Shown here: piece after piece, positions 6,884 to 44,836 of the stretch
Numbering within the stretch: the first letter of the stretch is position 1
How the letters are laid out: every line of letters starts with the position of its first letter
Assembly: GCA_040081795.1 (NCBI GenBank)
Contig: JBEBFV010000003.1
Span: 1 to 45,970, forward strand
DNA: 45,970 nt
Source of the DNA: Limisphaerales bacterium
Lineage (GTDB): Bacteria > Verrucomicrobiota > Verrucomicrobiia > Limisphaerales > SXTU01
Reading direction: 5' to 3'
Program-made: the position numbers and the translations under genes
Notes under the pieces: generated by a model
Told to the model about the DNA's origin: nothing
Database searches by the model: none
Seen by the model: the letters and a program-made list of their open reading frames with translations, nothing else

Positions 6884-6899
6884 GGCACTTGATTGAAAG

Positions 6900-6930
6900 T
6901 GGTGGCTGCGGCCGGAATTGAACCGGCGAC
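6900..6930 (-). repeat. att site: 31-bp duplicate of the tRNA-Phe 3' end
   Basis: tggtggctgcggccggaattgaaccggcgac is identical to 33126-33156. Flanking sequences diverge immediately. Confidence 0.95.
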
Positions 6931-7023: not shown

Positions 7024-8094
7024 GTGGCATCGCTCTTCAAACGCAAAGGCAGCCGTAACTGGTGGATCAGCTTCCGCAAGCGCGGGAAGCGCTGGCACCG
7101 TAGTCTCCGCTACAAGCATGACGTGTCGGCGGACACTCGCAAAGCCCGTGAGGAATGCGCCCGCCAGACGCTGCGGGAGATGACCGAGTCCGGCCAGCAG
7201 GCCGAGAGCCGGTGGGAGGGCTGGGTGCCCGGCTTCTTCGCCCAGCGCTACGCCACCATGCCCAAGACCAAGCACCGCTACGAAATAACCTGGCGCACCT
7301 TTCTGCTCTTCTTCGACCGGATGGACATCACCAGCCCGGCCCAGATCGGCTACAAGGAGGTCATGGAGTTTCTGGCTTGGCGGCAAAACCCGGATGTAAA
7401 GGGCGTCTATCCCTCCTCGCGCAACACGGCCATCCACGAGGTAAAGATGCTCGGTGCCATCCTTCAGGAGGCCGTCCGCCGGGGCTACATCGTGGCGAAC
7501 CCGGCGCGCGGGCTGGGCCTGATTCGGGACAAGCCCAAGGAGAAGGCGGAAATCACGCTGGCCGAAGAGGCCATCATTCGCCGTGAACTGCCCAACTGGC
7601 CGGCGTGGATGCAGGCTTGTTTTGAAATCGCGATGGCGACGGGCTGCCGGCTCCGCGAGACCGCCATTGATCTCGCCAACGTGGACGTGGACGCCGGGAC
7701 CATGCACTTCATCGCCAAGGGCGGGCGCGTTCACTCCCTGATGATCCCGCCGGTGCTGCTCCCGCTGTTCCGCCGGCTGAAGGCGGAGGGGGCCAAGAAA
7801 GCGTGCGAGCTGCCCAAGAGCGGCCCGTCGAAGTTCTGGTGGAGCTTCTTTCGGAAAGTCGGCCTGCCCCACCTCTGCTTTCACTGCATTCGGGTCACGG
7901 TCGTGACACGGCTGGCCCGCGCTGGAATTCCCGAACGGCTCACCATGCGCTACGTCGGCCACGCCAGTTCGACCGTCCACGCCATCTACACCAAGTTGCG
8001 GCCAGCGGACCTTCAGTCCTGCATCGAGGCGCTCGCGGCGGCCAGCAAGCCCACGGTGCCCGCCGTGCCGGTCGCCGTGGCGCAGGCCGCGTGA
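7024..8094 (+). CDS. Tyrosine recombinase/integrase (island integrase A)
   Basis: Catalytic set TGCRLRE (R), AKGG (K), FHCIR (HxxR), VGHAS (H), HAIY (Y). Basic N-terminal arm-binding-like domain. Adjacent to att. Confidence 0.92.
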   Translation: MASLFKRKGSRNWWISFRKRGKRWHRSLRYKHDVSADTRKAREECARQTLREMTESGQQAESRWEGWVPGFFAQRYATMPKTKHRYEITWRTFLLFFDRMDITSPAQIGYKEVMEFLAWRQNPDVKGVYPSSRNTAIHEVKMLGAILQEAVRRGYIVANPARGLGLIRDKPKEKAEITLAEEAIIRRELPNWPAWMQACFEIAMATGCRLRETAIDLANVDVDAGTMHFIAKGGRVHSLMIPPVLLPLFRRLKAEGAKKACELPKSGPSKFWWSFFRKVGLPHLCFHCIRVTVVTRLARAGIPERLTMRYVGHASSTVHAIYTKLRPADLQSCIEALAAASKPTVPAVPVAVAQAA

Positions 8095-8126: not shown

Positions 8127-9230
8127 TCAAATCCTGACCCGCTCGGCCCCGTCGCACTCATCCTCGTAGTCGTAAAACACCACGGGCGGCGTCGCGGCTG
8201 GCAGCGTCTTCACCGCTGCTGCGCAAGGTGCCAAATCCTCGGTCTGGAGGCGCTGGTAAAGGGTGTGAACGTCGGCGGAGGAATGGCCCACGAACTTCAT
8301 CGCCTGACTTTGGTTGACGCCCGCGCGGGCGAGGCGGCTGATCACTGTGACGCGGCAGCAGTGAAAGCAGTATTGCGGGCGGCCAATCCGGTCGAAAAAA
8401 CGGCGCCAGTGCTTGGAGGCATCCTCCGGAATTTCACAGGTGCGCTCGCGGCCTTCGGCGCGGAGGCGCTCAAAGAGCGGCCGCAGCCGCTCCTGCAAGG
8501 GCACGGTGAACACCTTCTGCCCCTTTTCATGGAACGTGACCGTCCACTGGTCCCAATTCACATCGCGGCGCAAGTCAATTGAGGTCGCGCGCAGCCGCGT
8601 GCCGTGAGCGATGGAAATCTGAAAGCTGACGAACATCCACTCCGGCTCCTGCTGCAGCTCGTCCAAGATCAGGGCAATGTCCGGGCCGCTGATCTCCGGC
8701 TTCTGCGGCGAGGGCTGTTTCGTCAGGCCGGTCTTGTGGCAGGGGTTCCGCTCGCAGAATTCCCGGCGGACGGCTTCGTCTAGCACAATGCCCAGCAGCT
8801 TCACATCGCCCAGGGAGGTATTGTGGCTGGCGGACCGGACGCGGTCATCATCGGGCTGCATCCGCCAAGCATGGTAGGCTAGGACATTGGCATAGCGAAG
8901 CTGACGCGGATGATGGAGGCCGTGGCGCTCAAGAAAGACGGACAAGACGCGCCATGATCCAAGATAGCGCTCCAAGGTCCTTGCCTGGTGCGGCGCACTA
9001 TGGCGGGAACGCAGGAACGGCAAGACCCACGCGGAAAACTTCTCGGTTCCACTGACATTTCGCCCCGTGCGCTCCTTGATGGATTCCTCCTCGGCGAGGG
9101 CGTGGGCGCGTCGCCGGTCCAACCGGTTGTCCTTCCGAAGCACGGTGCTCCGCTGGTGCCATTTGCCATCTGCGCCGCGCGTGCGGAGTTGCAGGAACGG
9201 GCTGTCAGTCTTGGCGACGAGGTGGGCCAT
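8127..9230 (-). CDS. Tyrosine recombinase/integrase (paralog B, convergent with A)
   Basis: HGTRLRA, HEKG, FHCCRVTVISRLARAG, VGHSS, HTLY. Collinear with 7024..8094. Confidence 0.9.
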   Translation of the reverse strand: MAHLVAKTDSPFLQLRTRGADGKWHQRSTVLRKDNRLDRRRAHALAEEESIKERTGRNVSGTEKFSAWVLPFLRSRHSAPHQARTLERYLGSWRVLSVFLERHGLHHPRQLRYANVLAYHAWRMQPDDDRVRSASHNTSLGDVKLLGIVLDEAVRREFCERNPCHKTGLTKQPSPQKPEISGPDIALILDELQQEPEWMFVSFQISIAHGTRLRATSIDLRRDVNWDQWTVTFHEKGQKVFTVPLQERLRPLFERLRAEGRERTCEIPEDASKHWRRFFDRIGRPQYCFHCCRVTVISRLARAGVNQSQAMKFVGHSSADVHTLYQRLQTEDLAPCAAAVKTLPAATPPVVFYDYEDECDGAERVRI

Positions 9231-9285: not shown

Positions 9286-9987
9286 TCAGTTATAGGCCGA
9301 CACCTCAGCCGCCTCAGCTTCGGCGGTGGCCGGTTCGTAGAGCTGCGCGAAGGCGGCGGCGAACGCGTCCGGGAACTGATACGTGTCAAAGCGGTGGTAG
9401 TAGTAGGTTTCCAACCGCTCCTTCAGGAGTTCAGGGAGCAGTTCGCACTGCTTCTCGATGAGTTTGAAGGCACGGCGGAACCGCGCCTCATCCTCGCTCT
9501 TGTAACCGGCATACGCCTCCTTTGCCGCATCCATGAGTTGGGTGCACAGCGCTCCGAAGGACGCGTCGGCGTCCGGTGCCCAGTCCACTTGACCGTCCTG
9601 CCGATACGCGCCCTCAACCAGCCACTCAGGATGATAATCGCGGAGCGCCTTGAGCTGCGGCGCAACCCGCTCCCTGAAGTGACTCACCTGCCAGCCAGCG
9701 ACGGCGAGCGCACCAACGATCAGCACGCCATCCTTGGTCGCAGCGCCCTCTTCGAGCGCGTTGCCAATTTCCTGGCCGTCAATTGCGATGAGCGCAAGGT
9801 TCATGCAGGCGAGGGGGTTGATGTTCCTGGGGTCCTCGTCGTAGTCCTCGTCGGGGTTCCAGTAGGGGAGCATGTCCACCGCAGCCCTGCCGATGTTCGC
9901 GCGGGTCATGCTGGTGCGATCAGACCAATGTGTATACTCGTCGGGGTCAAGGCACGCCAAACGCGCCTGTTGTTTCATCGTGTTCAT
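9286..9987 (-). CDS. Hypothetical protein (acidic, helical)
   Basis: Protein-like ORF. Start set at ATG 9987, 24 nt after the conserved leader hairpin. No family recognised. Confidence 0.7.
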   Translation of the reverse strand: MNTMKQQARLACLDPDEYTHWSDRTSMTRANIGRAAVDMLPYWNPDEDYDEDPRNINPLACMNLALIAIDGQEIGNALEEGAATKDGVLIVGALAVAGWQVSHFRERVAPQLKALRDYHPEWLVEGAYRQDGQVDWAPDADASFGALCTQLMDAAKEAYAGYKSEDEARFRRAFKLIEKQCELLPELLKERLETYYYHRFDTYQFPDAFAAAFAQLYEPATAEAEAAEVSAYN

Positions 9988-10011
9988 AACGGTTTTCGGT
10001 TGACTGACTAG

Positions 10012-10196
10012 GTCCGTGAATTGATTTCCACGGACACCCATGCGGGCTTTCTCCGAACGCCCGGAGCGGACGCTGGCCAAGTTTTGTGGCCTGCACGAAA
10101 GAGGAACTGATTCAATGGAGCACGAACCGTGTGAATCAGATGGACATTCTGGCGGCGATTGCTGGGTTCAACTCGACTTCCTTCGCATGAACCGTG
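10012..10196 (-). promoter_or_regulatory. Conserved ~185-bp leader element, copy A
   Basis: Homologous, in inverted orientation, to 11094-11276: two CACGGTTCRTG boxes 65 bp apart, a 28/29-identical core, and a GTCCG...CGGAC hairpin. Confidence 0.75.
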
Positions 10197-10211
10197 AAAT
10201 TCAAGGGCGAT

Positions 10212-10883
10212 ATGCCGTCCTCGCTTCCTAAGCTTTGTCCTGAATGCCGCAGCCGAATGGTAGTCAGCCGAACTTTCGAGGCTCCCGAAACCCGTGTGCG
10301 GACTCAGATTTGGAAGTGCCTAAATCGCGCTTCATCCGTGATTGCACGTCCGCACAAACGCGACCTCCATTTACGTGGGATGATTCAAGAGCGCTTTCGT
10401 CTTGATGGACGAAGTCGAGGCGCTAGCCAAGTGATTCTGGACGAAGATACGCTTATGCGCACGTTGGCGGGGCTTGCGATGGGATTGTCAATCCGAGAGC
10501 TTGAGCGGCTGGGCCTCACTCGTCTTTACTCGAACCATGCGCGCCTGATGAACCGGCGATGGTTTAAGGACGCCGCTTATCGAAGCGAAGCTGAGTGCCT
10601 GCTTAACCGTTATGCGGAAAGGAATGATTGGGAACTTCGCCTTACAATCCTACTTTGGCAGAGTGCGTGCGTGGATGAAGGATTCACCCCTTCCAAAGCC
10701 GCCGCCAGCAAGGTCTTGAGAATGGGACTCGATTCTGCGGAACCGAGCTTCAGTCAGAGAATCGCGGGCCAAAATGCTGAAGTTTTGCGCACCGACTCGC
10801 GCAACCGGCTTACGTCCGGAAATTTCATACGGGCCGTAGAGCAAGCGAAGGAACGCCGCCGTCGTCAAAACGGTCTTTGGTGA
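10212..10883 (+). CDS. Hypothetical protein with N-terminal Zn-ribbon-like CPEC...C and possible HTH
   Basis: LCPECRSRM...IWKC and LAGLAMGLSIRELERLGL. Lies between the two inverted leader copies. Confidence 0.5.
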   Translation: MPSSLPKLCPECRSRMVVSRTFEAPETRVRTQIWKCLNRASSVIARPHKRDLHLRGMIQERFRLDGRSRGASQVILDEDTLMRTLAGLAMGLSIRELERLGLTRLYSNHARLMNRRWFKDAAYRSEAECLLNRYAERNDWELRLTILLWQSACVDEGFTPSKAAASKVLRMGLDSAEPSFSQRIAGQNAEVLRTDSRNRLTSGNFIRAVEQAKERRRRQNGLW

Positions 10884-11093
10884 GCGATTATTCCAGAGGG
10901 AGTCAGCAGGACGAGTTTGACGGTGCGCCGGGCGTCTCTCGTCGCGCCTGCGAGGTTGGTTCAAGGAGCCGCAACGCTTGCAAAATTTACCCAGCCACTG
11001 CTGCCTTACTGTTAGCAATTGGCGTTTGATGGCTGGCTGGTCACAATAGCGAGCCGTGGTCCAACGCTCAGAGGGTAGCAAACGCGATCTTTA

Positions 11094-11276
11094 CACGGTT
11101 CGTGCATAGGAAGCGGAATTGTCATAGTAAAATTGTGGCAACAGCCCTTTCACCTCCGCACGGTTCGTGACCCGCAAACGAAGTTCCTTCCTTGTGTCCG
11201 CGCATTTTGCGCTGGCGCCTGCTCCAGGCCGTTCGGAGAAAGCCCGCAAGGGTGTCCGCAAACAAGGTTTGCGGAC
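11094..11276 (+). promoter_or_regulatory. Conserved ~185-bp leader element, copy B
   Basis: Boxes at 11094-11104 and 11159-11169, core 11230-11258, perfect 10-bp hairpin 11254-11276. ATG 24 nt downstream (11301). Confidence 0.75.
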
Positions 11277-11300
11277 TCAGCTAACAAGCAACACATCACC

Positions 11301-11402
11301 ATGACCACTACCGCAAATCCCACCACCGCCTCACGCGCCGTCGAGGAGCTGCTCAACAGTTCCTCTGGTTTGGGCGTGTGCGCGGGACGGCAGCCTCAAT
11401 AG
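11301..11402 (+). pseudogene. 33-codon ORF behind leader B (small peptide or truncated gene)
   Basis: ATG lies at exactly the same distance from the hairpin as the ATG behind leader A, but the ORF stops early. Confidence 0.35.
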
Positions 11403-11413
11403 GCTCGCCGGTT

Positions 11414-11689
11414 ATGAACTGCCCATGCCCTCCGGCCAAGAGCCGGCCCAAGCAGCCGACGCTCCTCGAATCCGCCGGGGAGGTCGTGCTGCTGCTCGTC
11501 ATCGTCGCCGTGATTGCCGTGGTGCCCTTGCTTGTCTGCGAGTGGCTCGCGCAAATCGCCCTGCCGGCGCCCGTGAACGGGACGCCAGAGATGCGGCAGG
11601 CTGTTGCCGCCCAGCGAGAGTCGCTTGCGAAGGTGCTGTTCGGCCTGCTCTGGGCGGTGCTTGGCGGGTGGCTGATTTTCTTCGGCTGA
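11414..11689 (+). CDS. Small two-TM membrane protein
   Basis: Two hydrophobic stretches (VVLLLVIVAVIAVVPLLV; VLFGLLWAVLGGWLIFFG). Confidence 0.55.
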   Translation: MNCPCPPAKSRPKQPTLLESAGEVVLLLVIVAVIAVVPLLVCEWLAQIALPAPVNGTPEMRQAVAAQRESLAKVLFGLLWAVLGGWLIFFG

Positions 11690-11730
11690 ACGGCTGGGCT
11701 CGTGCCTCACGCGCGCCCCGCCGGTCCACA

Positions 11731-12435
11731 TCAAGTTGTCTGCCGCTCAAGCCGTGCCTTGCGCAGCTTCCAGTCTGGAAGCAGGCGCGTCAGCAGTTCG
11801 TAAAATCGCGGGCCGTGGTCGTGGTGCCGGAGGTGGCAGAGTTCGTGGATGATGACGTAGTCAATGCAATCCACGGGCGCGCAGATGAGCGCCGGGTTGA
11901 GCAGAATCCGGCGGTCAGCGCCGCAACTTCCCCAGCGCCGGGGCATCCGCCGCAATCCAAATCCCTTCGGTGTGATGCCAAAGGGGTGAACTGCTTCGCT
12001 GCATCGCTGGAATCGTTCCGCGAGCTTTTGCTGGGCGCGCCCGCGAAGCCACTTTTCCAACGACGGCGTGGCCCCTGTCTTGTCAGGCTGCTTGTCCTTG
12101 ACGACGATTTCGACCACGCCACGCGACATCCTGATTCCTAACGGGTTGCCTGAGCGAATCCGCAGCCGGTATTGCCGCCCCAAGTAGCGAATGGACTGGC
12201 CGCTCACGCGCCGCTCACTTGGGGCCGGGAGCAAGGCTTCAAACATCCGCTGCTGCCGCAGTATCCACCGCCCTCGCCGGGCCACCCGGCCAATCACGCC
12301 TGCCTCTGCCGCGTGCGCCGGAGCGATGACCTCCACGGCCCCGGAGGGTTGAACGCGAATGGCGAGGTGCTTGACGGCGCGGCGCTCAAGCTGGAACTGG
12401 ATTGTGCGGGTGCCGTATTGCGCTTCGCAAATCAT
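11731..12435 (-). CDS. M48/SprT-like (YgjP/DUF45) metallohydrolase associated with HsdR
   Basis: RRWGSC, LLNPAL, IDYVIIHELCHL (HExxH), HGPRFY. 4-bp overlap with the hsdR stop. Confidence 0.92.
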   Translation of the reverse strand: MICEAQYGTRTIQFQLERRAVKHLAIRVQPSGAVEVIAPAHAAEAGVIGRVARRGRWILRQQRMFEALLPAPSERRVSGQSIRYLGRQYRLRIRSGNPLGIRMSRGVVEIVVKDKQPDKTGATPSLEKWLRGRAQQKLAERFQRCSEAVHPFGITPKGFGLRRMPRRWGSCGADRRILLNPALICAPVDCIDYVIIHELCHLRHHDHGPRFYELLTRLLPDWKLRKARLERQTT

Positions 12436-15400
12436 GCCGTCCCCTTGCTCCCCTTGTAATGCGCCTCCGCAATCGGCAGCACGTCCTTGCCGATTTCATC
12501 CAGCGCGGCCAGCGGCAGGGTGAAGCCGTGCCGCTTGGCGGTGGCAAGCAGACAGTCCTCCGCCGCGTTGAGCATCTGGTTGCGCACGTCCGGGTTGGCC
12601 GTCCAGTTGACGATGCTCGCGAGCTTCGCCACTTCGTCGTCAATCGCCAGGCCCAGCTCCACCCCCACAGCCTCAGCCTCCGCCGGGGACAGCGACTCCA
12701 TCGCGCCCAGCGCCCGCTTCGCCACCCCGTAGTAAGCCCGTGCGGCGGCGCGCTGGTGCAACTCTGGCGGCAGGTCGCTGGTGGCGCGGTCGCGGACCTT
12801 CTGCATGACCTCGCTCACGCTGGCGAGGTATTGCGCGTCCGTGAGCCGCTTGGCGCGGTAGTCCTCGATGAGCCGCTGAAGGATGCGGGAGAAGCGTTCG
12901 TAAAACGCGGGGTCTTCCTCCCACTTTTCACGGATGGTTTTCTCCGTGCGGCTGAAGATGGTGTCGGCGCGGGACGCGGTGCTTTCCAGCTTTTGCACTT
13001 CCGCGTCGAACCGCTCCTTGTCGAAGATGTTCACCAGCGGCGTGAGCTTCGCCACCTCCGTCGCGCCGACGTGCCGGTCAATCAAGGTCTGGATGCGCTT
13101 CTCGTATTCCGCGTAGTCCACTTCCTCGCTGTAACGCTGCTTCATGCGCGTGCGCAGGTTCAGGAAGTATTTCAGGTCGCGCCGATACCGGGCCACGGTC
13201 GCGGCGGGCGTCTGGGTGAAGAAGTCCGACGACGACAGCGCGACTTGGAAGATGCGCGCGAACCGGCTCAGGCGGGCGTAAAACTCGTCGCGCTGGTCCT
13301 GATGTTGCAGGCACGCGGCGAATTGTTCGTCGTCCTGCTGGTTCTTCACCGCGCGGAACAGCGCCCACAACTCCGCGCTGGCGTCCGGCAGCTTGCCCAC
13401 TTCATCGGCCACCGGCGTCAGTGTGGCGGCGAGGTCCGCCGCGTCGTATTCGGCCAGCGCCTCGTAGTGGGTCAGGGCCTCGTTCAAGTCGCCCAAGACA
13501 CCGTAGTAGTCGAGGATGTAGCCGAAGTCCTTGCCCTCGCTGCGGCGGTTCACGCGGGCGATGGCCTGCAAGAGCGTGTGACCCGTCAGTTTCTTGTCAA
13601 TGTAGAGGACCGTGTTGGTGGGGGCGTCGAAGCCGGTGAGCAGCTTGCTGACGACGATGATGATTTGCGGGTCGCCGTCCCCCTTGAAGCGGCTGGTGAG
13701 ACTGTCGTTGTAGCGTTCCTCGGTGCTGAAACGCGCCATCATCTCGCGCCAGAACAATTGCACGCGCGGCAGCTCGCTCTCGGCGCAATCCTCGTTGTCA
13801 TCGCGCGTGTCCGGCGCGGAGATGAGCACTTCAGTGGAGACGCGCAACGCCGGGTCGGTGCGGCCAATTTCATCAATGATTTCCTTGTAACGCAGCGCCA
13901 CGTCTTTCCGCGGCGCGACAAGCTGCCCCTTCGCGCCGGTGCCGGCGAAGGTGCTGGTGAAGTGTTCACAGAGGTCGTAGGCCACCATCATCAGCCGCTT
14001 GTCGGCGCGGTTCAGGTGGTCGGCGTTGGCGAACTTCTGTTTGAAATCCGCCTTCTGGTCCTCGGTCTTGCCGCGCATCAGCCGTTCAAACCAGAGGTCG
14101 AGCTGCTCCTTGTCCACTTCCTGTTCAACGTGCCGGCCTTCGTAGAGCAACGGCACCACCGCCTGGTCACGAACGGCGTGGTCGAGCGTGTAGGTGTGGA
14201 TGAAGTCACCGAAGACCTGGAGGTTGTTCCGCTTCTCGTCATGCACCACCGGCGTGCCGGTGAAGCCGATGAAGCAGGCGCGCGGCAGCGCCTTCCGCAT
14301 CATCGCATGGAACGAACCGAAGTTCGTCCGGTGGCCCTCATCCACCAGCACGAACAGGTTGGGGTCATCGTCAAGCTGGGCGACGCCGCGCACGGCGCGC
14401 TCGAATTTGTTGATGATGGTGGTGATGACCCCGGCCTTGCGGCTCTGAATCAGTTCGCGCAGCTCCTTGCCGTCCTTCGCGCGCACGGGTTCGTAACCGC
14501 AGTAGCGGAACGTGTCGCCAATCTGTTTGTCCAGTTCCACCCGGTCGGTGACGAGAATCAGCCGGGGATTGGGGATGGCCGGATGCAGCGTCAGCGCCTT
14601 CGCCAGCATCACCATCGTCAATGACTTGCCGCTGCCCTGCGTGTGCCAGACGAGGCCGCCCTGCCGGTTGGCGTCCGGCCCACGCTCTTGCACGCGGAGC
14701 AGCGCGGACTTCACCGCCGCATACTGCTGGTGCCGGGCAATCTTCTTCTCCCCGCCGTCGTAAACGATGAACTGGCGGCTCAGTTCCAGCAGCCGCTCCG
14801 GGCGGCACAGCGCATACAGGACGCGGTCCTGCTCCGTCACCGTCCGCTCCTGCAAGATGGGCAGCTCCAATCGCGCCCAATGCAGCTTCACCAGTTCATC
14901 CACGGCGAGCGGCTGGCTGAGAACCTTCAGCACCTCGCCGTCAGGAATCACCTCGCGCCACGACGCCCAGAACTCCGCCGGGGTGCGGGCCGTGGCGTAT
15001 TGCGCGGCCTCGCCATTGATGCCGAGCACGAGCTGGGCATACCAGTAAAGGCGCGGGATGCCGTCCTCGCGCTGGTTGCGGATGTGCTGCGAGATGGCTT
15101 GTTGAAGTTCCTTCTTGCCCCTCGGCTTGCACTCGATGACGGCGAAGGGGATGCCGTTCACGAACAGCACCACATCCACCCGGTAAGTCTCGCGCGTGCC
15201 GGTGCGCTCGACGGTGAATTCCTCGGTGACGTGGAAGGCGTTTTGGTCCCAGCGTTCCCAATCCACGTAGCGCAACGTGAAGCTGCGCGTGTCGCCCGCG
15301 ACCGTCTGGGGGAAGCTCTTGCCCAGCGACAGCAGGTCGTAAAGTTTCTCGCTCGTCTGAATCAGCCCCTCATCCGACAGGTCGCGGACGGCGGCGATGC

Positions 15401-15644
15401 CGGCTTCGATGGCCTCCGATGAAAACGGCTGCTCCTGACCTCGCCAGCGCACGCGGTTCAGCTTGGATAACTGCTCGTGCAAAATGGGCGCGAGAATCAC
15501 TTCCGACTTCCGCCCGCCGCGCAACTGCAACGCCTCGGCAGGCGGCAGGTAGCGGAAGCCCAGCTTCATCAGCAGTTCCACGGCGGGAATCTGCGAGACG
15601 AGCTTTTCGCGCGTGTCGGGCGTGGTGGATGATTCAGTGGGCAT
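12432..15644 (-). CDS. hsdR: Type I restriction endonuclease subunit R
   Basis: Nuclease motif VDVVLFVNGIPFAVIECK, Walker A HTQGSGKS, DEGH box, GFTGTP, LLTGFDAP, LLQAIARVNR. 1070 aa. Confidence 0.97.
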   Translation of the reverse strand: MPTESSTTPDTREKLVSQIPAVELLMKLGFRYLPPAEALQLRGGRKSEVILAPILHEQLSKLNRVRWRGQEQPFSSEAIEAGIAAVRDLSDEGLIQTSEKLYDLLSLGKSFPQTVAGDTRSFTLRYVDWERWDQNAFHVTEEFTVERTGTRETYRVDVVLFVNGIPFAVIECKPRGKKELQQAISQHIRNQREDGIPRLYWYAQLVLGINGEAAQYATARTPAEFWASWREVIPDGEVLKVLSQPLAVDELVKLHWARLELPILQERTVTEQDRVLYALCRPERLLELSRQFIVYDGGEKKIARHQQYAAVKSALLRVQERGPDANRQGGLVWHTQGSGKSLTMVMLAKALTLHPAIPNPRLILVTDRVELDKQIGDTFRYCGYEPVRAKDGKELRELIQSRKAGVITTIINKFERAVRGVAQLDDDPNLFVLVDEGHRTNFGSFHAMMRKALPRACFIGFTGTPVVHDEKRNNLQVFGDFIHTYTLDHAVRDQAVVPLLYEGRHVEQEVDKEQLDLWFERLMRGKTEDQKADFKQKFANADHLNRADKRLMMVAYDLCEHFTSTFAGTGAKGQLVAPRKDVALRYKEIIDEIGRTDPALRVSTEVLISAPDTRDDNEDCAESELPRVQLFWREMMARFSTEERYNDSLTSRFKGDGDPQIIIVVSKLLTGFDAPTNTVLYIDKKLTGHTLLQAIARVNRRSEGKDFGYILDYYGVLGDLNEALTHYEALAEYDAADLAATLTPVADEVGKLPDASAELWALFRAVKNQQDDEQFAACLQHQDQRDEFYARLSRFARIFQVALSSSDFFTQTPAATVARYRRDLKYFLNLRTRMKQRYSEEVDYAEYEKRIQTLIDRHVGATEVAKLTPLVNIFDKERFDAEVQKLESTASRADTIFSRTEKTIREKWEEDPAFYERFSRILQRLIEDYRAKRLTDAQYLASVSEVMQKVRDRATSDLPPELHQRAAARAYYGVAKRALGAMESLSPAEAEAVGVELGLAIDDEVAKLASIVNWTANPDVRNQMLNAAEDCLLATAKRHGFTLPLAALDEIGKDVLPIAEAHYKGSKGTA

Positions 15645-15660: not shown

Positions 15661-16119
15661 CTAATTCTCGCCGGGGGAGTAAGCCGCCTTGGGTTCGTCT
15701 GTCTTCTCAGTCGTGTGATTCGCGGATGGTCCCAGCCACTTGCCGGTCAGCAGAAACAACTCGTAGAAGACGAGCCATTCAGCCACCCACGGGATGACGG
15801 TTTCGTGCAAATGCCACTTGTTCTGCCAAGGCTGCTCACGCCAGTCGTAGAGGCAAAGCGTGTCGTTCCGATACATGTGCGCGCCGGACGTGAACTTGAG
15901 CGCTGGCTCGATGACGCGGATTTCAGGTGAACTCCACGGCTGGTATTTTATTTCCACGCGGTAAGGCGCGCTGTGCTCAGTCGGCTGAATCCGCCCGCGA
16001 CACGTCAACTCCTGCCCACGAATCCGCGCATGGAGGCCGGGAAAACTCCGCCGGACGAGCGCCTGCTCACAAACGACCTTGTGATAGCGGTCAGCTTTGT
16101 TGGTGGGGATGGTCGCCAT
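15661..16119 (-). CDS. Stand-alone prokaryotic E2 (ubiquitin-conjugating-like) protein of short type II CBASS
   Basis: GRIQPT...YRVEIKY...PEIRVIEP...HMYRNDTLCLY...W...TVIPWVAEWLVFYELF...GKWLG matches the CBASS E2-only family (catalytic Cys in LCLY). Overlaps the CD-NTase 3' end. Confidence 0.85.
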   Translation of the reverse strand: MATIPTNKADRYHKVVCEQALVRRSFPGLHARIRGQELTCRGRIQPTEHSAPYRVEIKYQPWSSPEIRVIEPALKFTSGAHMYRNDTLCLYDWREQPWQNKWHLHETVIPWVAEWLVFYELFLLTGKWLGPSANHTTEKTDEPKAAYSPGEN

Positions 16120-17200
16120 AGAACTTGTGCGGTAGGTTCAGCACGCCCGCGCCGATGGCGGCGCGGACAATCACGCCAGCGCTGTTGGTCGCCGCAACTC
16201 CCGCGTTCACCAGTGCGGCATTGGCAAAGAGCGTGCGCGTCTTCCCCTTGTCCTTGTCGTAAGCCTCGAAATACCCGTCGCTCTGGAACACCCAATCCCA
16301 CGCGGCGCGAGCCTGCCCAGGTTTGCAGTCCGAACGGTGGAGGACATTCAACTGCGCCAGCGCCTCTCCGACGCGCGTGCGCAACTCCACCATGTTCCCG
16401 TCGCTTGGCGACTTGGTAAGCTTGTCCTTCGGCCACTTTGTCTGCGCCCGGTTCTCCACTTCCAAGTTCGTCGCGAGCCGGTCCTTGAGCCGGGCGAGCA
16501 GCCAGTAAAAGCACTCGTCATCCCGCTGGTATTGGGTTTGCAGGCACTCTTCGGTGAGCATCGTAAGCTTGAGGCCGTTTGGCAGGTCCCAATCCTTGCC
16601 CCGGCTGCGGGCGAATCGCTTCATCATCCGAATCATCACGCGGAGCTGGGAGCCAGCACCGGCGCGCTGCTTGTTGAGCGCCTGAACACGGTCCAGAAAC
16701 CAGCGATTGATTTCAGTCGGGTCGGAGAGATTGAACCCCGCTGCCCCGGCCAACTCTTGCCGCTCCTTGTCTGTGTCCGCATCGAGCTTCCGATAGGCGG
16801 GCACGTCAACATGGTGGCCCGCCTCGTAGAAGATGCGGACGCAGTTGTTGTGAATCTCCGGCTGCTTGTTGAATCGGTCGTCCTTCAAGGCATCACGCAC
16901 CATCACTTGCGTGTCCATCGCGCTGTAGGCCGCACCGTCCTTCTTCTTCAAGTCGTCCGCGTGGAACCACACGCCGTCGTCAATGTCGTAGGCGTTATCC
17001 TTCTCCTGAACCGTCGTCTCAATCGCCATTGAGCCTTGCGGCATGAAGTGATTGTCGTTCAACCGGATGGTGTCGGGGCGGTTGGCTTTGAGCCGGTTCC
17101 GATTGGCGGCGCGGTGGTCGCGCAACTTGTCTTTGACTGCCTGCGGCAACGCAACGCAGTCGGCTTCGTAGGCTTGGATTTGTTCGTTGTAATCAAACAC
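16091..17200 (-). CDS. cGAS/DncV-like nucleotidyltransferase (CD-NTase) of CBASS
   Basis: PQGS...T...YDIDDG catalytic motif, CVRIFY...HVDVPAYR, SDP, QLRVMIRMMKRFA, and a C-terminal tail ...PHKFYG-DHPHQQS. GTG start with GGAGG RBS. Confidence 0.92.
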   Translation of the reverse strand: MFDYNEQIQAYEADCVALPQAVKDKLRDHRAANRNRLKANRPDTIRLNDNHFMPQGSMAIETTVQEKDNAYDIDDGVWFHADDLKKKDGAAYSAMDTQVMVRDALKDDRFNKQPEIHNNCVRIFYEAGHHVDVPAYRKLDADTDKERQELAGAAGFNLSDPTEINRWFLDRVQALNKQRAGAGSQLRVMIRMMKRFARSRGKDWDLPNGLKLTMLTEECLQTQYQRDDECFYWLLARLKDRLATNLEVENRAQTKWPKDKLTKSPSDGNMVELRTRVGEALAQLNVLHRSDCKPGQARAAWDWVFQSDGYFEAYDKDKGKTRTLFANAALVNAGVAATNSAGVIVRAAIGAGVLNLPHKFYGDHPHQQS

Positions 17201-17969
17201 TGTGACCTCCTTGGTCTGGCGGACGGTTCGCTAGCTGATTGGCGTAGGCCATCCAGTCCACCGCCGGAACCGTGGCGAGCGACTGGAGTTTCCACAACAG
17301 GCGGAAGGCGAAATAGGCCAGCGCGTTCTCTGGCGGGCCAAAGGTGTATGCGTTCGGCCCGGCGAACGTGTCGAAGCTCGCGCCGCTCGCGGCGAAGCCG
17401 CAGTCAATCTTCCGCTCGTTCAGCAGGCCGGCGTGAGCTTCCCGAAACGACTCGCCGAACCCGTCTTTCCAGTCAACCTCGATGGCGAGGATTCCAGCCA
17501 CGATGTCGAAATGCTTTTTGGCAGCGAACACGCCGCCCGCGTGATGGATTTCAACTGAAGTGCGCTTGAGCTTCCTCACTGAAGCAGCCTTGTCCGCCGC
17601 ATATTCCAAGTAGCCCTTGTCAATCGTCGGCTTGCACTCAAAGACGGCGTAAACGGCTTCGGCTGGCACGTAGCGGTGCTTGTGGTTGTCCAGCAAGGTC
17701 GGTGTGTATTGCCGGTCGAAGACCACCACGTCTATCGAGTCGCTGACGTTGCCTTCGCTGTCGAGGACAATGGCCTTCTCGATTGTGTAGCGGTTGGGCA
17801 GGTATTTGCGGAGGAAATCAATGCAGTGCTGTTCGTTGACTTCCCCTCGGTCGCCCGCGTGCGAGATGCGCTTGGAGGATTTCAGTTGGGCCTTCAAGCA
17901 ATCCTGCTCAGTGGCGAAGGCTTGCCGTAGGAATTCTGCGTTGTGCGGCGTGTTCGTGTCGTTGTTCAT
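17193..17969 (-). CDS. nucC: NucC-family cyclic-oligonucleotide-activated endonuclease (CBASS effector)
   Basis: H-GDRGEVNE, YLPNRY, DSEGNVSDSIDVVVFDRQYTP, VPAEAVYAVFECK, SVRKLKRTS--I-HAGG and C-terminal TVPAVDWMAY are collinear with E. coli NucC as I recall it. Confidence 0.93.
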   Translation of the reverse strand: MNNDTNTPHNAEFLRQAFATEQDCLKAQLKSSKRISHAGDRGEVNEQHCIDFLRKYLPNRYTIEKAIVLDSEGNVSDSIDVVVFDRQYTPTLLDNHKHRYVPAEAVYAVFECKPTIDKGYLEYAADKAASVRKLKRTSVEIHHAGGVFAAKKHFDIVAGILAIEVDWKDGFGESFREAHAGLLNERKIDCGFAASGASFDTFAGPNAYTFGPPENALAYFAFRLLWKLQSLATVPAVDWMAYANQLANRPPDQGGHSV

Positions 17970-19132
17970 GGCTGTTTGGTTTTAACGCGGACCTTGCCGG
18001 TGAGGAGCTTCTGCATGAGGCCGCGCTTTTGGAGTTTCAGGGCGGCCAGTTCGGTTTCGAGCAGGCGGATTTCGCGGTCGCAGGCGTCGAGCACGCTCAC
18101 GATGCGTTGCTGTTCCTCAATGGTGGGCGGCAACTGGATGTGATGCTTCAGGAAGTCCTTGGAATCGAAGATGAGCTTCTCGACGTGAACGCCGTCGCTG
18201 GCGAGGAAGGCGAGGTGCCACATGCGGCGCTGATGACAGAGCCAGTCGAAGAAGGGCATGTGCAACACGTCGGGCGCGCGGTTGACGAGGATGGAGTATT
18301 CCTTGGAGACGTGGCAGCCAGCGAACTCGTCCGTCACCATGCCCCAGGCGCCGTGGACAACCTGCCGCTTGGAAATCAGGAAATCACCGCTGCGGACTTC
18401 ATGCAGGTCGGTGGTCTTGTAGTCCGCGCCGAGCAAGTCTCCACGGCGGAACAGGCCGCCACAACGACGGCGGATGCTGATGAGGTGGAACAGGCGGTCA
18501 GGTGCCCAATCCACCGGGCGGAAGACGTGCTCCAAGACAGCGCCCAACTGGACGCGCCGCCATTTGCCGCGACCAAACTTGGGGAAGCGGCGGGTGCCGG
18601 TGAGGAGATGTTCGCGCAAAGCGCGCATGCGCTCCGTCTTGGTCGTCACCGTTGCTTGCAGCTTTTCAATGGCCTGGTCCCAAGTCGCAAGAATTTCGGC
18701 TACACGCTTTTGTTCGCGTGAAGCCAGGGCGACGAACGGGGTGTCGAGGATAACGTCGCGGGAGATACCCGGAATTAACCCCGATGCTACGGCTTCATAT
18801 CGGTGTCCATTGGCGAGAAGGACTTGGTGAACAAAATTGGCATCCCATGATTTCGGACGGACAGCCATCAACTGCCGACCAATGGCATAGCGTCGGTCAG
18901 CGCGAACGACTGCGCCGGTGCCTGAACCCTTTACGACCACCAGAATATCCCCAGCTTCGCAAAACGCTCGACCAGTTCCAGTGAATCGTTCCGCGTTTGG
19001 TTTCCCGTTCAGAAAATCCGTCGGGCCAGTCAAATACGGAATCCCGCGCTTCTCGAAAGTTAGTTCAGCGCTTTCGATGTGCTGACCCGAAATCAGTTGG
19101 ATGTCGTCACCAAGCAAGCTGTGGCGGCTCAT
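17966..19132 (-). CDS. hsdS: Type I RM specificity subunit S
   Basis: Two TRDs separated by conserved regions (EQKRVAEILATWDQAIE; LPPTIEEQQRIVSVLDACDREI...KRGLMQKLLTGKVRV). Confidence 0.93.
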   Translation of the reverse strand: MSRHSLLGDDIQLISGQHIESAELTFEKRGIPYLTGPTDFLNGKPNAERFTGTGRAFCEAGDILVVVKGSGTGAVVRADRRYAIGRQLMAVRPKSWDANFVHQVLLANGHRYEAVASGLIPGISRDVILDTPFVALASREQKRVAEILATWDQAIEKLQATVTTKTERMRALREHLLTGTRRFPKFGRGKWRRVQLGAVLEHVFRPVDWAPDRLFHLISIRRRCGGLFRRGDLLGADYKTTDLHEVRSGDFLISKRQVVHGAWGMVTDEFAGCHVSKEYSILVNRAPDVLHMPFFDWLCHQRRMWHLAFLASDGVHVEKLIFDSKDFLKHHIQLPPTIEEQQRIVSVLDACDREIRLLETELAALKLQKRGLMQKLLTGKVRVKTKQP

Positions 19133-20640
19133 AGTCCAAGCTCCTTGAGGTAGCGACCAATCTCCTTCCGCACGCCGACGAGTTCGTCTTCAAGCCGGGT
19201 GATTTCCCGCTGCACCTGCTTCAAGTCCACCGGCGCTTCCGCCTCGAACGTGTCCACGTAGCGCGGGATGTTGAGGTTGAAGTCGTTCTCCTTCACTTCC
19301 TCGAACGTGGCGCGCTTGGCGTATTTCGGCACATCCTCGAACCGGCGCACGGTCTGGACGATTTTCTCAATGTCCTGCGGGCGGAGCTTGTTCTGGTTGG
19401 TGCCTTCCTGATATTCGCGGCTGGCATCCACGAACAGGATGTCGGTGCCGCGCCTCGCCGCCGGCTTGCCCTTGTTGAACAGCAGAATCGCGGCGGGGAT
19501 GCCGGTGCCGTAAAAGAGGTTCACCGGCAGGCCGATGACGGCTTCCAGCAGGTTTTCCTCGATGAGCGCCTGACGAATCTTCCCCTCCGCCGCGCCCCGG
19601 AACAGGATGCCATGTGGCACGATGACGGCCACCCGGCCAGAGCCAGCCTTGGCGACTTCGACCATGTGGGTGATGAAGGCGAAGTCGCCCCGGCTCTTGG
19701 GCGGGATGGCGCGGTGAAAGCGGCCGTAAGGGTCGGCGGCAGCCTTGTCGGCCCCCCACTTGTCGAGGGAGAAGGGCGGGTTCGCCACCACGATGTCGAA
19801 CTTCATCAGCCGGCCATCCTCGACGAGCTTGGGGGAATTGATGGTGTCGCACCACTCGATGCGCGCGGCGTCGAGGCCGTGGAGGAACATGTTCATGCGC
19901 GCGAGCGCGTAGGTCTGGTTGTTGTTCTCCATTCCGAAGACGGCGACGTTCTGGCTGCCGACTTCGCGCGCGACCTTGATAAGCAGCGAGCCGGAGCCGC
20001 ATGACGGGTCGCAGATTTGGTGGCCCGGCTTGGGGGCAAGGAGCTTGGCGAGCAGCGTGGCGACTTCGGAGGGCGTGTAGAACTCGCCGCCCTTCTTGCC
20101 CGCGTCGGAGGCGAACTGGCCGATGAGGTATTCGTAGCAGTCGCCGATGATGTCGCTGGGATTGCTGCCGAGCGTCTTGGGCCGGAGGTCGAGCGGGGCG
20201 AAGTCTTCCAGCAGGTGTTTCAGGCGGCGATTGCGGTCGCGCGTCTCGCCCAAGTGGACCTCGGAGTTGAAGTCAATTTTGCGGAACACGCCGTCGAGCT
20301 TGGCCTTGTTCTCGTCCTCGATGGTGTCGAGCGCGCCATTGATGAGTTCGCCGATGCTGTCCTTGTCCCGGCTGGCATAGAGCGCGTCGAACGTGGCGGA
20401 CTCCGGGATGATGAAGCGCTCGCGGGCGAGGCGGCGCTGAACCATCGGCTCATCCTTGGGGAACTGCGCGCGGAGTTCCTCGATGCGCTGGCGGCGCACG
20501 TCGCTGAGGTATTTCAGGAACAGCATCGTGAGGACGTAGTCCTTGTAAACGGACGAGTCCATGACGCCCCGGAAGGTGTCGCACGCCTTCCAGGCAACGC
20601 GGTTGATTTCGTCTTTTCGGTCAATGGTGGTGTCAGGCAT
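19129..20640 (-). CDS. hsdM: Type I RM methyltransferase subunit M
   Basis: WKACDTFRG, GKKGGEFYTP, DPSCGSGSLL (motif I), VANPPFS (motif IV), PHGILFRG, FNLNIPRYVD. Confidence 0.97.
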   Translation of the reverse strand: MPDTTIDRKDEINRVAWKACDTFRGVMDSSVYKDYVLTMLFLKYLSDVRRQRIEELRAQFPKDEPMVQRRLARERFIIPESATFDALYASRDKDSIGELINGALDTIEDENKAKLDGVFRKIDFNSEVHLGETRDRNRRLKHLLEDFAPLDLRPKTLGSNPSDIIGDCYEYLIGQFASDAGKKGGEFYTPSEVATLLAKLLAPKPGHQICDPSCGSGSLLIKVAREVGSQNVAVFGMENNNQTYALARMNMFLHGLDAARIEWCDTINSPKLVEDGRLMKFDIVVANPPFSLDKWGADKAAADPYGRFHRAIPPKSRGDFAFITHMVEVAKAGSGRVAVIVPHGILFRGAAEGKIRQALIEENLLEAVIGLPVNLFYGTGIPAAILLFNKGKPAARRGTDILFVDASREYQEGTNQNKLRPQDIEKIVQTVRRFEDVPKYAKRATFEEVKENDFNLNIPRYVDTFEAEAPVDLKQVQREITRLEDELVGVRKEIGRYLKELGL

Positions 20641-25483: not shown

Positions 25484-25559
25484 CGCCCGGCGGGCGCACT
25501 TCGGGTGAATGTAAACAAAGAGGGGTGTGCTTCTACGGTGCCGGTTTGTAGGCTGGCCC

Positions 25560-26528
25560 GTGAATACTACCAGCCTGTCCCTGACGCCGGTTCGCGCCGG
25601 TTCCGTGGCGCGAATTTCCCCCACCCACAGCGATCTTGTTCGTGCCTTCCTGTCTGGCCGGAACGAGCGCACCCTGCGCGCCTACTCCCAAGATTTGGCG
25701 GACTTCCAAGCCTTCGTCGCGGCCAAGTCGGTTGACGACGCCGCGCGCGAGCTGCTGGGCAACAGCCACGGCGCGGCGAACCTCTTGGCGCTGGCCTACA
25801 AGACTCATCTGGTGGAGCGCGGCCTGCAATCGGCCACCGTCAACCGGCGGTTGGCGGCGTTGCGGTCACTGGTGAAGCTGGCGGGCACGTTCGGCTTGGT
25901 CCCGTGGAAGCTGGAAGTGGCGAACGCCAAGACGACGGCCTACCGCGACACGCGCGGCCCCGGCAAGCAGGGCGTGCGATGCCTGTTGGAAGCGGTGAGC
26001 GGCCAGCGGGGCAAGCCAGCGGCGCGGAACAAGTTTGCGCTCCGGTTGCTCTACGACTTGGCCCTGCGGTGCGGTGAGGTCGTGGCGCTGGATGTGGAGG
26101 ACTTGGACTTGGCGCAAGGTCGGCTGGCCGTGCGCGGCAAGGGCAAGACGGAGAAGCAATGGCTCACCTTGCCAGAGCCAACCAAGGCAGCAGCGGCGGA
26201 CTGGCTGGCAGCACGCGGCGCGGACGCCGGGCCGTTGTTCACCAACTTCGACCGTGCGGGCAAGGGGCGACGGCTCACCAACGTGAGCCTGTATCGCATC
26301 GTGCGTGGGCTGGGCGAGCAGCACGGCTTGAAGGTGCGACCCCACGGCTTGCGACATACAGCGATTACTGAGGCGTGCAAGGCGGCTCAGGCAAACGGCT
26401 TTGGCTTGGAGGAAGTGCTGGATTTCTCCCGGCACAGCCGGAAATCCATCGCGGTGCTGATGGTTTATCGTGACAGGGAGCGCAACGTGCAAGGCCAACT
26501 GGCGTCACTGGTGGCGGGTGCAGCCTGA
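25560..26528 (+). CDS. XerC/D-like tyrosine recombinase
   Basis: TLRAYSQDL, SATVNRRLAALRSL, LALRCGE (R), RGKGK (K), PHGLRH, SRHS, MVYRD (Y). Start approximate. Confidence 0.92.
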   Translation: MNTTSLSLTPVRAGSVARISPTHSDLVRAFLSGRNERTLRAYSQDLADFQAFVAAKSVDDAARELLGNSHGAANLLALAYKTHLVERGLQSATVNRRLAALRSLVKLAGTFGLVPWKLEVANAKTTAYRDTRGPGKQGVRCLLEAVSGQRGKPAARNKFALRLLYDLALRCGEVVALDVEDLDLAQGRLAVRGKGKTEKQWLTLPEPTKAAAADWLAARGADAGPLFTNFDRAGKGRRLTNVSLYRIVRGLGEQHGLKVRPHGLRHTAITEACKAAQANGFGLEEVLDFSRHSRKSIAVLMVYRDRERNVQGQLASLVAGAA

Positions 26529-31400: not shown

Positions 31401-31642
31401 TCCGGCTCGTGGGGGAAGAGCTTCTTGACGTTGCGCTCCTCGAGGCACTTCTCATAGATAGTGAGACCTCCTCCGACTATGGCCAGCGCGACGCCCGCCG
31501 CGGGACCTAGAGCTGCGGTGGTGGCGATCAGTCCCTCTGCGGAAGTGGCAGCGTGCGCCAGCTGCTTAATGCCACTAAACAAGCCGACGTCCATGAGCAG
31601 CTTGGCGAAGCCGTGGCCGGAGGACGGAGGTTGCCCGCTCAT
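28454..31642 (-). CDS. NLR-like STAND (NB-ARC-type) NTPase with C-terminal TPR array and uncharacterised N-terminal domain
   Basis: FTGRADEL, Walker A GPGGMGKT, Walker B-like VLLYLEGCE, VLLTTR, GRHPLAL, HSLL, and 42-aa kinesin-light-chain-type TPRs (LGPEHP-TL-SLNNLA). Confidence 0.9.
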   Translation of the reverse strand: MSGQPPSSGHGFAKLLMDVGLFSGIKQLAHAATSAEGLIATTAALGPAAGVALAIVGGGLTIYEKCLEERNVKKLFPHEPDHHTTTGLNHDLEHALTRATTRTLVALIKDWQELPLEQRGSRDTEQVLAEFAQQCEGWLKNHGDNPASQTIADWIETLDQSAIRAFADLEPNPQLTGARTGELPLSAHFFRALSVSGKWFAEQFPPVFEVHLWDELKKNERAWIAFQGGLHKRTRELLSQANAKLDEQSAQLATQSAELKLISAQLALLREALERRAADAEHPGTALLDNVIQRVFAEIQKNNPALLALLRPTLSDDLVAAVELVIEDNAQQHRQSRKHVEEVVGSAKEELKATFHEAVGLTQPKILPWNPPPRSVGFTGRADELRDMAKLLDQYQRIALVGPGGMGKTALAAEVLFKLAPTPGAESRYPGGIYIHDYYRQSGHQAALAGLLGQAGVDLRTVTDPTAEVRRLFSRSGVLLYLEGCEKADELSLLLELTGQVRVLLTTRDKQKRGDAHPYVVHPLAIEDAAQLLHNHALQASLPDDDAMREPWRKLAGELGRHPLALRLAGAWMQNQSEPLKEFADRLQTERFGDWAAEDKQKANLHLLFQHSAEAVVRKHKKALEAWFGLALHGHAPVPLAVLCGVLEQPEKTVRTMLNALVHYSLAEGSQFPSEQIGQTEPAWQLTHSLLGEWARDQWSVNLGIRSGGADLPLDQNARQRVGDGRAPIGLPRRRAIIRVWRAWWWKDLKRCYENHAVPGGPARYAALQPHWGSLLGMIRQSESKERCELSAEQECIAIIHAQMGNYALAEPLHRRALAACERTLGPEHFGTLGSLNNLAGLLSAKGDLAGAEPLHRRALTVREHTLGPEHPDTLSSLNNLAVLLKGKGDLAGAEPLFQRVLAACERTLGPEHPATLSSLNNLANLLLGKGDLAGAEPLCRRALAVRERTLGPEHPATVSSLNNLATLLKDKGDLAGAEPLHRRALATLERTLGPEHPNTLMSLNNLASLMATKGDLAGAEPLADRAVQGYLAKLGSENPHTKKAQQALAMIREARAKGGKG
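28601..29230 (-). repeat. Five tandem 126-bp coding repeats (42-aa TPRs); a degenerate sixth follows below 28600
   Basis: Near-identical units containing cagattgttcaggctc...ctccggccccagcgtgcgctc with 126-bp period. Confidence 0.92.
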
Positions 31643-31751
31643 GATGGTTATGAAAGTAGAGATACAATGCTGTGCCGACAATTTGTAAATGGCTCACGGT
31701 CACGGGGACTTCACATGGAATATCGCGGGGCGTTTGTAGGAGCCGGCGGCT

Positions 31752-33201: not shown

Positions 33202-33291
33202 AAACTAATTATCCTGCAACTACTTGCAGTGAAAACGATACTGCGAAAAACTTCCAGTTGTCACCCGAAAATGTCACCGTATGCTTCAGGG

Positions 33292-44833: not shown

Positions 44834-44836
44834 GGA

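Follow-up and report, generated by a model that had tools for sequence, protein, structure and literature searches.

Inverted, outward-facing conserved regions with putative RNA leaders flank a rare gene in a Limisphaerales accessory island

Introduction

In the immunity region of phage lambda, a regulator gene lies between two control regions that read outward, OL and OR, which are accompanied by nutL and nutR. A different solution is found at the Ogr/Delta-dependent late promoters of P2 and P4, where a small activator with a cysteine motif works through a partly palindromic upstream box located at a fixed distance from the transcription start. Inverted repeats are also familiar from invertible switches, such as the hin H segment and fimS with its recombinases FimB and FimE, and the ends of Tn7- or Mu-like elements carry repeated internal transposase-binding sites. 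Here, we describe a locus that recalls parts of each of these systems. It lies in a stretch of 45,970 nucleotides (the window) from a Limisphaerales bacterium (GCA_040081795.1, contig JBEBFV010000003.1, positions 1 to 45,970; genome assembly of 6.18 Mb) and consists of two homologous, inverted units of ~185 bp, 10012-10196 on the minus strand and 11094-11276 on the plus strand, which point away from each other and enclose a gene, P0001.

Control regions of this kind can also act after transcription has started. HK022 putL and putR are two homologous cis-acting RNAs, stem-loops of ~65-70 nt of which each divergent early operon contains one; the put RNA forms two long bulged stems and acts on the zinc-binding domain of the RNA polymerase beta' subunit (PMC9378689). 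We asked how the paired units of the Limisphaerales locus compare with these systems, and propose that each unit combines an operator/promoter region with a structured 5' leader.

Results

Pairwise alignment of the two units yields 115 identical columns out of 187, and this identity is concentrated in blocks. The boxes agree at 10/11 and 11/11 positions, the AGTTCCT motif at 7/7, the single-stranded part of a 29-nt core at 9/9 and a small hairpin within this core (P2) at 11/12, so that the conserved blocks (boxes, AGTTCCT and 29-nt core) are 90-100% identical between the units. Identity of the spacers is 25-45% overall, against a random expectation of 25%, with 11/37 between the boxes and 3/12 between box 2 and AGTTCCT, and a run of 19 identical bases stands amid spacers of such random-level identity. 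Each unit contains two boxes of the pattern CACGGTTCRTG, an 11-bp part-palindrome (CACG-GTT-CGTG), at a start-to-start distance of 65 bp, and box 1 is followed in both units by C-NN-AGGAAG-NN-GARTTG. No indel is present in the 95 columns from box 1 through AGTTCCT. Taken together, blocked identity, exact spacing and the indel-free stretch fit selection on protein-binding geometry, rather than neutral decay of a duplication. The AGGAA sequence 3' of box 1 is complementary to the UUCCU within AGTTCCT in both units.

The blocks are scarce elsewhere. When one mismatch was allowed, the box pattern matched the window five times (2.02 expected), a number reached in 2 of 100 shuffles. Exact matches number six across the 6.18-Mb genome, of which this locus accounts for four (three matches for the reversed-pattern control). 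The pattern of the 29-nt core, which includes one W position, matched twice, compared to 0.00 expected from 100 shuffles. Each unit is followed by exactly 24 nt (9988-10011 and 11277-11300) that separate its terminal hairpin from an ATG at 9987 and 11301, respectively. Six-frame reading revealed that the frames of the conserved blocks differ between the two units on both strands; the blocks are therefore non-coding, and coding conservation was ruled out as their cause. G+C content of the units is ~55-56% and thus below that of the flanking genes. We conclude that the paired units are a real feature that did not arise at random and almost certainly has a function.

The 3' third of each unit is predicted to fold on the outward strand into three hairpins, P1, P2 and P3, on which single-sequence folds and RNAalifold concur. 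P1 closes a CUC loop with 7-10 pairs, P2 has the form GCCC-GCAW-GGGU, and P3 contains 9-10 pairs, while the invariant single strand UCGGAGAAA is located between P1 and P2. The base of P3 (GUCCG/CGGAC) is kept in both units, whereas its upper stem has been exchanged and still pairs. In the resulting 20-pair structure, all 40 cells of the two units are paired, and this pairing falls to 20-46% in a control with slid partners. Three pair changes between the units are two-sided (one in P1, two in P3) and two are one-sided. Six of the cells hold G-U pairs on the outward strand, for which the opposite strand would show A-C mismatches, and the folds reach z-scores of -1.9 and -2.4 in sense as compared to -0.9 and -1.3 in antisense orientation. 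For the full-length units, sense folds yield z-scores of -1.7 and -2.7. RNAalifold further adds an AGGAA:UUCCU helix that encloses box 2 and draws the boxes as hairpins of 4 bp; none of these pairs varies, and they are therefore uninformative either way. Rfam 15, searched with the whole window at the gathering threshold, matched a single tRNA at 33129-33201, and relaxing the search to E<=10 over 9900-11450 added two sub-threshold chance matches off the hairpins (RF01111, 16.4/35 bits; RF01131, 14.9/40 bits).

Much of this anatomy had been pointed out in an earlier note on the same DNA. Its outward units, with two boxes 65 bp apart and AGGAAG/GARTTG following box 1, its conserved AGTTCCT, its 29-nt core with a single mismatch and a GCCC-GCAW-GGGT mini-hairpin, and the exact 24-nt gaps were all recovered at the positions it gave, and the folds bear out a terminal hairpin that retains its base while the swapped upper stem remains paired. 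The mutually exclusive folds that it expected from an alternative CGGA/UCCG pairing (CGGA/TCCG in the DNA) do not appear in any minimum-free-energy or centroid fold. Hairpin P1 with its compensatory change and the AGGAA/UUCCU complementarity go beyond the features that the note described.

The gene between the units is rare. P0001 appeared orphan-like in a word-indexed search, and an exhaustive HMMER search then recovered P0006 (46% identity, E 1.9e-34), whose cluster-mate P0007 retains the N-terminal cysteine motif MPSS-PKLCP-CRSRM...WKC. With two relatives and this N-terminal motif preserved, P0001 is a real, if rare, gene. Its G+C content at third codon positions (GC3) is 0.55, as compared to 0.77-0.87 in neighbouring genes, which suggests foreign origin. 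The family is absent from the viral contigs, 400 genomes of the class, plasmids and phages searched. No transposase or recombinase domain was found in P0001 by Pfam, PADLOC, PHROGs and NCBIfam scans, and the latter three returned no match for P0001, P0002 or the 91-aa protein encoded beyond the right unit. A sub-threshold match to Pfam Ogr_Delta (PF04606) was seen in one of three P0001 family members scanned, and PDB profile searches of the proteins of the locus gave nothing under E 0.3. The candidate GTG start of P0001 overlaps the left box 1, and P0001 would be the most likely protein to bind the boxes. Coordinates of all features are listed in Table 1.

Table 1. Coordinates of the paired units, their conserved parts and the adjacent genes.
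Feature	Position	Strand	Remarks
Left unit	10012..10196	-	Reads leftward to P0002; based on alignment with the right unit
Right unit	11094..11276	+	Reads rightward to the 33-codon ORF and the 91-aa membrane-protein gene; based on alignment
Box 1, left	10186..10196	-	CACGGTTCATG; last three plus-strand bases are the GTG at 10194, candidate start of P0001
Box 2, left	10121..10131	-	CACGGTTCGTG; exact pattern match
Box 1, right	11094..11104	+	CACGGTTCGTG; exact pattern match
Box 2, right	11159..11169	+	CACGGTTCGTG; exact pattern match
AGTTCCT block, left	10102..10108	-	7/7 identical to right; complementary to the AGGAA after box 1
AGTTCCT block, right	11182..11188	+	7/7 identical to left
29-nt core, left	10031..10059	-	3' side of P1, single-stranded UCGGAGAAA, P2 (GCCC-GCAU-GGGU), start of P3
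29-nt core, right	11230..11258	+	P2 loop is GCAA
Hairpin P1, left	10057..10073	-	7 pairs, CUC loop
Hairpin P1, right	11215..11232	+	7 pairs and a bulge; compensatory C-G to U-A relative to left
Hairpin P3, left	10012..10035	-	9 pairs including one G-U
Hairpin P3, right	11254..11276	+	10 pairs; two compensatory pair changes relative to left
P0001, 229 aa	10194..10883	+	CxxC...WKC cysteine motif, helical remainder; candidate box-binding regulator
P0002, 233 aa	9286..9987	-	First gene 3' of left unit; GC3 0.77
Tyrosine integrase	8127..9230	-	Directly downstream of P0002, same orientation
33-codon candidate open reading frame (ORF)	11301..11402	+	Begins 24 nt past right P3; coding status uncertain
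P0008, 91-aa membrane-protein gene	11414..11689	+	Downstream of right unit; 22 relatives; GC3 0.85

Further copies of the element were sought at several levels. Within the genome itself, BLAST with the right unit returned this unit and the core of the left one, and a covariance model built from the two units recovered both plus one match at E=0.26. The core pattern, with up to three mismatches, was absent from all 400 other genomes of the phylum, and the covariance model gave four weak matches in 150 genomes of the order (E 0.008-0.08), each in coding-looking DNA without boxes. Among viral contigs, the core pattern matched no stretch and the box-pair pattern nine, all of them repeats, either tandem or coding, that are spaced 59-72 bp apart. 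Chance matches to the core pattern were obtained in a collection of genome contigs (two, with unrelated flanks) and in a collection of metagenome contigs (three). One run from another study carries 9854-10094 with a single difference and adds no variation, and the contigs of runs X2-X4 leave 10095-11309 uncovered at a likeness of at least 80%.

P0002, the gene downstream of the left unit, has two relatives (71% and 50% identity), and its family is absent from the genome, metagenome and viral contigs and from the plasmids searched; its AlphaFold model has a mean predicted local distance difference test (pLDDT) score of 54, too poor for a fold search. A 94%-identical copy in run X3, from another study, loses similarity at 9950, inside codon 13 and before the leader is reached. 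Neither the P0002 N-terminus nor the DNA preceding it is thus a fixed partner of the gene, which fits a modular control region. Past 9950, the X3 copy continues with an open, different N-terminus, pointing to a recombination breakpoint just within the gene. In the left unit only, the P2 loop contains an ATG (10039-10041, minus strand) 9 nt past a conserved GGAG and in frame with P0002; this alternative start, preceded by a Shine-Dalgarno-type sequence, would add 18 stop-free codons before the ATG at 9987 and has no counterpart in the right unit.

On the other side, the family of the 91-aa protein is absent from 400 genomes of the phylum, 400 of the order (12 of them of the genus), viral contigs and plasmids. 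Run X3 contains an 86%-identical gene that begins at the start of its contig. Two relatives have N-terminal over-extensions, and when these were searched against 9900-11800 translated in six frames, no match fell on the leader; the match was limited to ~14 residues immediately before the start codon of the 91-aa gene (E 2e-4). The longest contig listed for P0007 and that listed for P0027, a relative of the 91-aa protein, are both 13,025 bp, which suggests that the P0001 and 91-aa families adjoin elsewhere as well. Two paralogues are encoded in the same genome (C476:8380-8625, minus strand, and C343:1482-1718, plus strand; 52% and 48% identity), each divergent from an AIG2/GGACT-like gene and itself followed by genes for an uncharacterised protein of ~215 aa and a metallophosphoesterase. 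A PcfJ-like gene lies near one of the two.

The locus is part of an accessory island, which two genomes of the same genus lack. Synteny with these genomes ends at ~6820, directly past a sulfatase gene, and all that follows to the right is accessory: in order, two integrases, P0002, the left unit, P0001, the right unit, the 33-codon ORF and the 91-aa gene, beyond which a type I restriction operon ends on the opposite strand. The two tyrosine integrases face each other tail to tail at the left edge of the island (7024-8094, plus strand; 8127-9230, minus strand). Just beyond the end of synteny, a ~33-nt stretch (6897-6930) is repeated at 97-100% identity on several contigs of both same-genus genomes; it may represent a short repeat or what is left of an attachment site at the edge of the island. 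Further integrases are located at 25527-26528 and 33229-34383, the latter beside tRNA-Phe (33126-33201), a large serine recombinase at 36854-38533 and partition-type ParB/RepB genes at 38530-40289. No phage structural genes were seen at the locus.

Defence-type genes are frequent in the island. The type I restriction operon, which extends from hsdR/YgjP (11731-15644) to hsdS/hsdM (17966-20640), contains on the minus strand (15661-17969) a set resembling cyclic oligonucleotide-based antiphage signalling systems (CBASS), with genes for an E2-like protein (15661-16119), an oligonucleotide cyclase (16091-17200) and a NucC-type nuclease (17193-17969). Additional genes on the minus strand at 28454-31681 and 40311-45928 encode an NB-ARC/TPR protein, the bacteriophage exclusion (BREX) protein BrxL, a product with a weak PglZ match and a YhcG-type PD-(D/E)XK nuclease. 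ARAGORN also reported a tRNA-Leu (anticodon tag) at 23646-23720 on the minus strand, which has no Rfam match and is located within a long ORF with RCC1/Ig repeats (21846-24602); this is probably a false call, given its position inside the ORF.

Discussion

The explanation to which we assign about an even chance is that the two units are paralogous cis-regulatory regions, each composed of an operator/promoter region followed by a structured 5' leader, and that together they form one switch module in an integrase-bearing island. We infer the transcription starts, the binding of P0001 to the boxes and the role of the leader from the sequence. The upstream half, from box 1 to AGTTCCT, would work as DNA: the two boxes 65 bp apart and the fixed AGGAAG, TTG and AGTTCCT blocks could constitute an operator or activator-dependent promoter region, with P0001 as the candidate binder of the boxes and possible autoregulation through the left box 1. 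The downstream half would be transcribed outward as a 5' leader of ~85-90 nt in which P1, the invariant single strand, P2, P3 and 24 unstructured, A/C-rich nt precede the AUG. Such a leader might impose a common post-initiation control on both divergent transcription units, either by binding a protein or RNA polymerase in the manner of nut or put, or by affecting mRNA stability or ribosome access from a position just beyond the 30S footprint. Transcription to the left would then yield P0002 and the integrase, whereas transcription to the right would yield the short ORF and the 91-aa membrane protein.

Several observations weigh against this proposal. Neither a sigma-70-like promoter nor a terminator was found in 9800-11800 on either strand, and the putative start site was placed by eye at an A/T-rich hexamer (AAAACT/CATTTT) 6 nt before P1; a net 2-nt indel between AGTTCCT and P1 is a misfit with a fixed -35/-10 spacing. 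Covariation is drawn from two sequences only, and the shuffle control gave 72/500. With two sequences this control cannot reach significance, and the pairing evidence is thus suggestive, rather than proof. As for P0001, its Ogr_Delta match (residues 15-31) has an E value of only 0.17 and 12.2 bits against a cut-off of 26.3, its AlphaFold model (mean pLDDT 43) is too poor for a fold search, and a PDB profile search with the protein gave no usable match. The two 91-aa paralogues of the same genome have neither boxes nor leader and, as these genes and the X3 copy of P0002 indicate, the element does not accompany its flanking gene families in general. Two other promoter types were considered and rejected: a sigma-54 promoter, judged by eye, for wrong GG/GC spacing in both units, and a promoter of the extracytoplasmic function (ECF) type on the opposite strand for unconvincing spacing.

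That no promoter was recognised inside the units would suit a different account, in which a single structured cis-regulatory RNA takes up the entire ~185-210 nt of each unit and serves as a leader that binds a protein or ligand, or as a nut/put-like antiterminator, transcribed from non-homologous promoters farther upstream. The boxes would then be CACG-GUU-CGUG hairpins and AGGAA would pair with UUCCU, as in the helix around box 2 and the box hairpins that RNAalifold draws besides P1-P3, and the z-scores of the full-length sense folds are in keeping with this idea. We nevertheless regard it as unlikely: the upstream helices are invariant and hence offer no covariation evidence, 95 indel-free columns with spacers of random identity typify the geometry of DNA sites and not RNA linkers, the left unit would require a promoter within the P0001 coding region, and no Rfam family matches. 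It is quite unlikely, in turn, that crossover takes place at the 30/32-bp inverted core repeats and that one of the adjacent tyrosine recombinases thereby inverts the ~1.16-kb segment 10063-11226, in a phase switch similar to hin or fimS. The geometry is suitable, since the arms of this repeat (I1) are 32 nt long, 94% complementary and 1164 nt apart, the segment holds one gene, and two tyrosine recombinase genes (7024-8094, 8127-9230) are present within 2 kb. However, the one spanning contig, from the likely source run, has a single orientation and the contigs of four runs contain no inverted joints, contigs being prone to drop rare variants. The core shows no inverted recombinase-binding arms around a spacer (none of at least 5 nt with at most one mismatch, beyond trivial ones), and its sole mismatch falls in the middle of a small palindrome. 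Inversion would also exchange two equivalent upstream halves, with little consequence, and would leave the compensatory changes in P1 and P3 and the homology extending 130 bp inward unexplained.

Lower in probability than inversion, we place the possibility that 10012-11276 is a small mobile element with the units as its long terminal inverted repeats. P0001 would then serve this element in mobility or DNA binding, and its insertion would have separated P0002 from the membrane-protein gene. The inverted-repeat bounds, the G+C content below that of the flanking genes and the low GC3 of P0001 could be read in this way, and the boxes repeated within each end are reminiscent of transposase-binding sites in Tn7- or Mu-like ends; the element is, however, single-copy in its genome and was found in none of the other genomes searched, no target-site duplication was found (flanking direct repeats are at most 4 nt long and at offset positions), P0001 has no transposase or recombinase domain, the apparent linkage of the P0001 and 91-aa families on another contig opposes random insertion, and the X3 relative does not regain homology at the repeat boundary. 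Ranking below this is the idea that an inverted duplication of old date left a relic without function, for which the existence of just two copies might speak; a 19-base identical run and exact 11-mers amid random-level spacers are unlike neutral decay, and the same holds for the exact spacing and the compensatory stem changes. Least probable of all is an Frpo-like single-strand promoter or initiation site that would be used when DNA is transferred or replicated by a rolling circle. Single-stranded DNA, too, could form hairpins with conserved bases, yet those seen here have 4-10 bp and rebuild no -35/-10 pair, so that the defining long, promoter-mimicking hairpin is missing; the ORFs scanned yielded neither a relaxase nor a type IV secretion gene nor a rolling-circle Rep, and G-U wobbles suit RNA better than DNA.

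Three functional ideas had been put forward in the earlier note, namely an undescribed cis-regulatory RNA, a single-strand promoter and an invertible segment. The outward leader is the best supported of them, as compensatory pairing and G-U pairs fit the outward strand alone, while a new RNA class remains unproven. The single-strand promoter loses its footing with the long hairpin, a conjugative context and the expected Rep all missing: the rolling-circle Rep named in the note was not found among the Pfam-scanned ORFs, which offer in its place only the partition-type ParB/RepB genes. The invertible segment keeps its geometry and its nearby tyrosine recombinases and loses on the lack of an inverted joint in the contigs, the missing core dyad and the core mismatch. 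Further homologs did not appear: the own genome contains the pair alone, none was found in the 400 phylum genomes or the 150 order genomes, and the viral, genome and metagenome collections gave chance matches; a match to a known Rfam family, which the note counted among refuting outcomes, was not obtained at the gathering threshold either. Within these searches, the case thus stands at two copies and no significant covariation, an outcome that the note had named as a refutation.

Going one step further than paralogous operator/promoter regions with leaders, the locus might contain a new class of cis-acting structured RNA (P1-UCGGAGAAA-P2-P3, or all 185 nt), which as a nut/put-like element or an operator for an RNA-binding protein would put both arms of a rare island switch under one post-initiation control, together with P0001 as the founder of a new family of cysteine-motif regulators that bind CACG-N3-CGTG. 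We consider this extension doubtful; what speaks for a new RNA class is no more than suggestive. Were the main reading correct, a poorly studied lineage would possess a compact switch without known sequence relatives, in which a rare regulator, mirrored operators and a shared leader govern the integrase operon together with a small membrane protein within a defence-rich island. It would supply a new pair of box and regulator as well as a new leader RNA, although practical value is limited with a single instance in hand.

Among the known systems, invertible switches of the hin and fimS type share with the locus a segment of ~1.2 kb between inverted repeats, with one gene inside and recombinase genes nearby. 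They differ in that the repeats described here are 185 bp long and mostly diverged, have no core dyad and enclose a gene without a recombinase domain, and the second orientation was not seen in contigs. Ogr/Delta-dependent promoters provide a parallel for a protein with a cysteine motif and a shared part-palindromic upstream box; the box sequence is unlike, P0001 is about three times as long as Ogr, and its match to the Ogr_Delta family is far below threshold. For HK022 put, the likeness is that of a homologous stem-loop RNA in each divergent arm with no need for a shared coding context, whereas three short hairpins take the place of two long bulged stems; sequence or Rfam-level similarity was not seen, and an action on polymerase would be hypothetical at our locus.

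The lambda immunity region differs from the locus in its details. There is no sequence similarity to boxA or boxB, the single strand being unlike boxA and the 4-bp hairpin carrying the loop GCAA in the right and GCAU in the left unit; two boxes 65 bp apart replace the three adjacent 17-mers that overlap the promoter in lambda, family scans of the neighbouring proteins gave no homologue of N, cro or cI, and the transcription units are tiny, with no terminators to override found in 9800-11800. The overall plan is nonetheless alike. A candidate regulator gene is located between homologous, inverted, outward control regions of repeated identical boxes, its own start abuts one of the putative operators, and the predicted transcript of each arm presents a conserved single strand (UCGGAGAAA) followed by a small hairpin, which in the right unit has a loop of GNRA type (GCCC-GCAA-GGGU). 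If our interpretation is correct, the lambdoid layout of mirrored operators and mirrored leader RNAs would recur outside phages.

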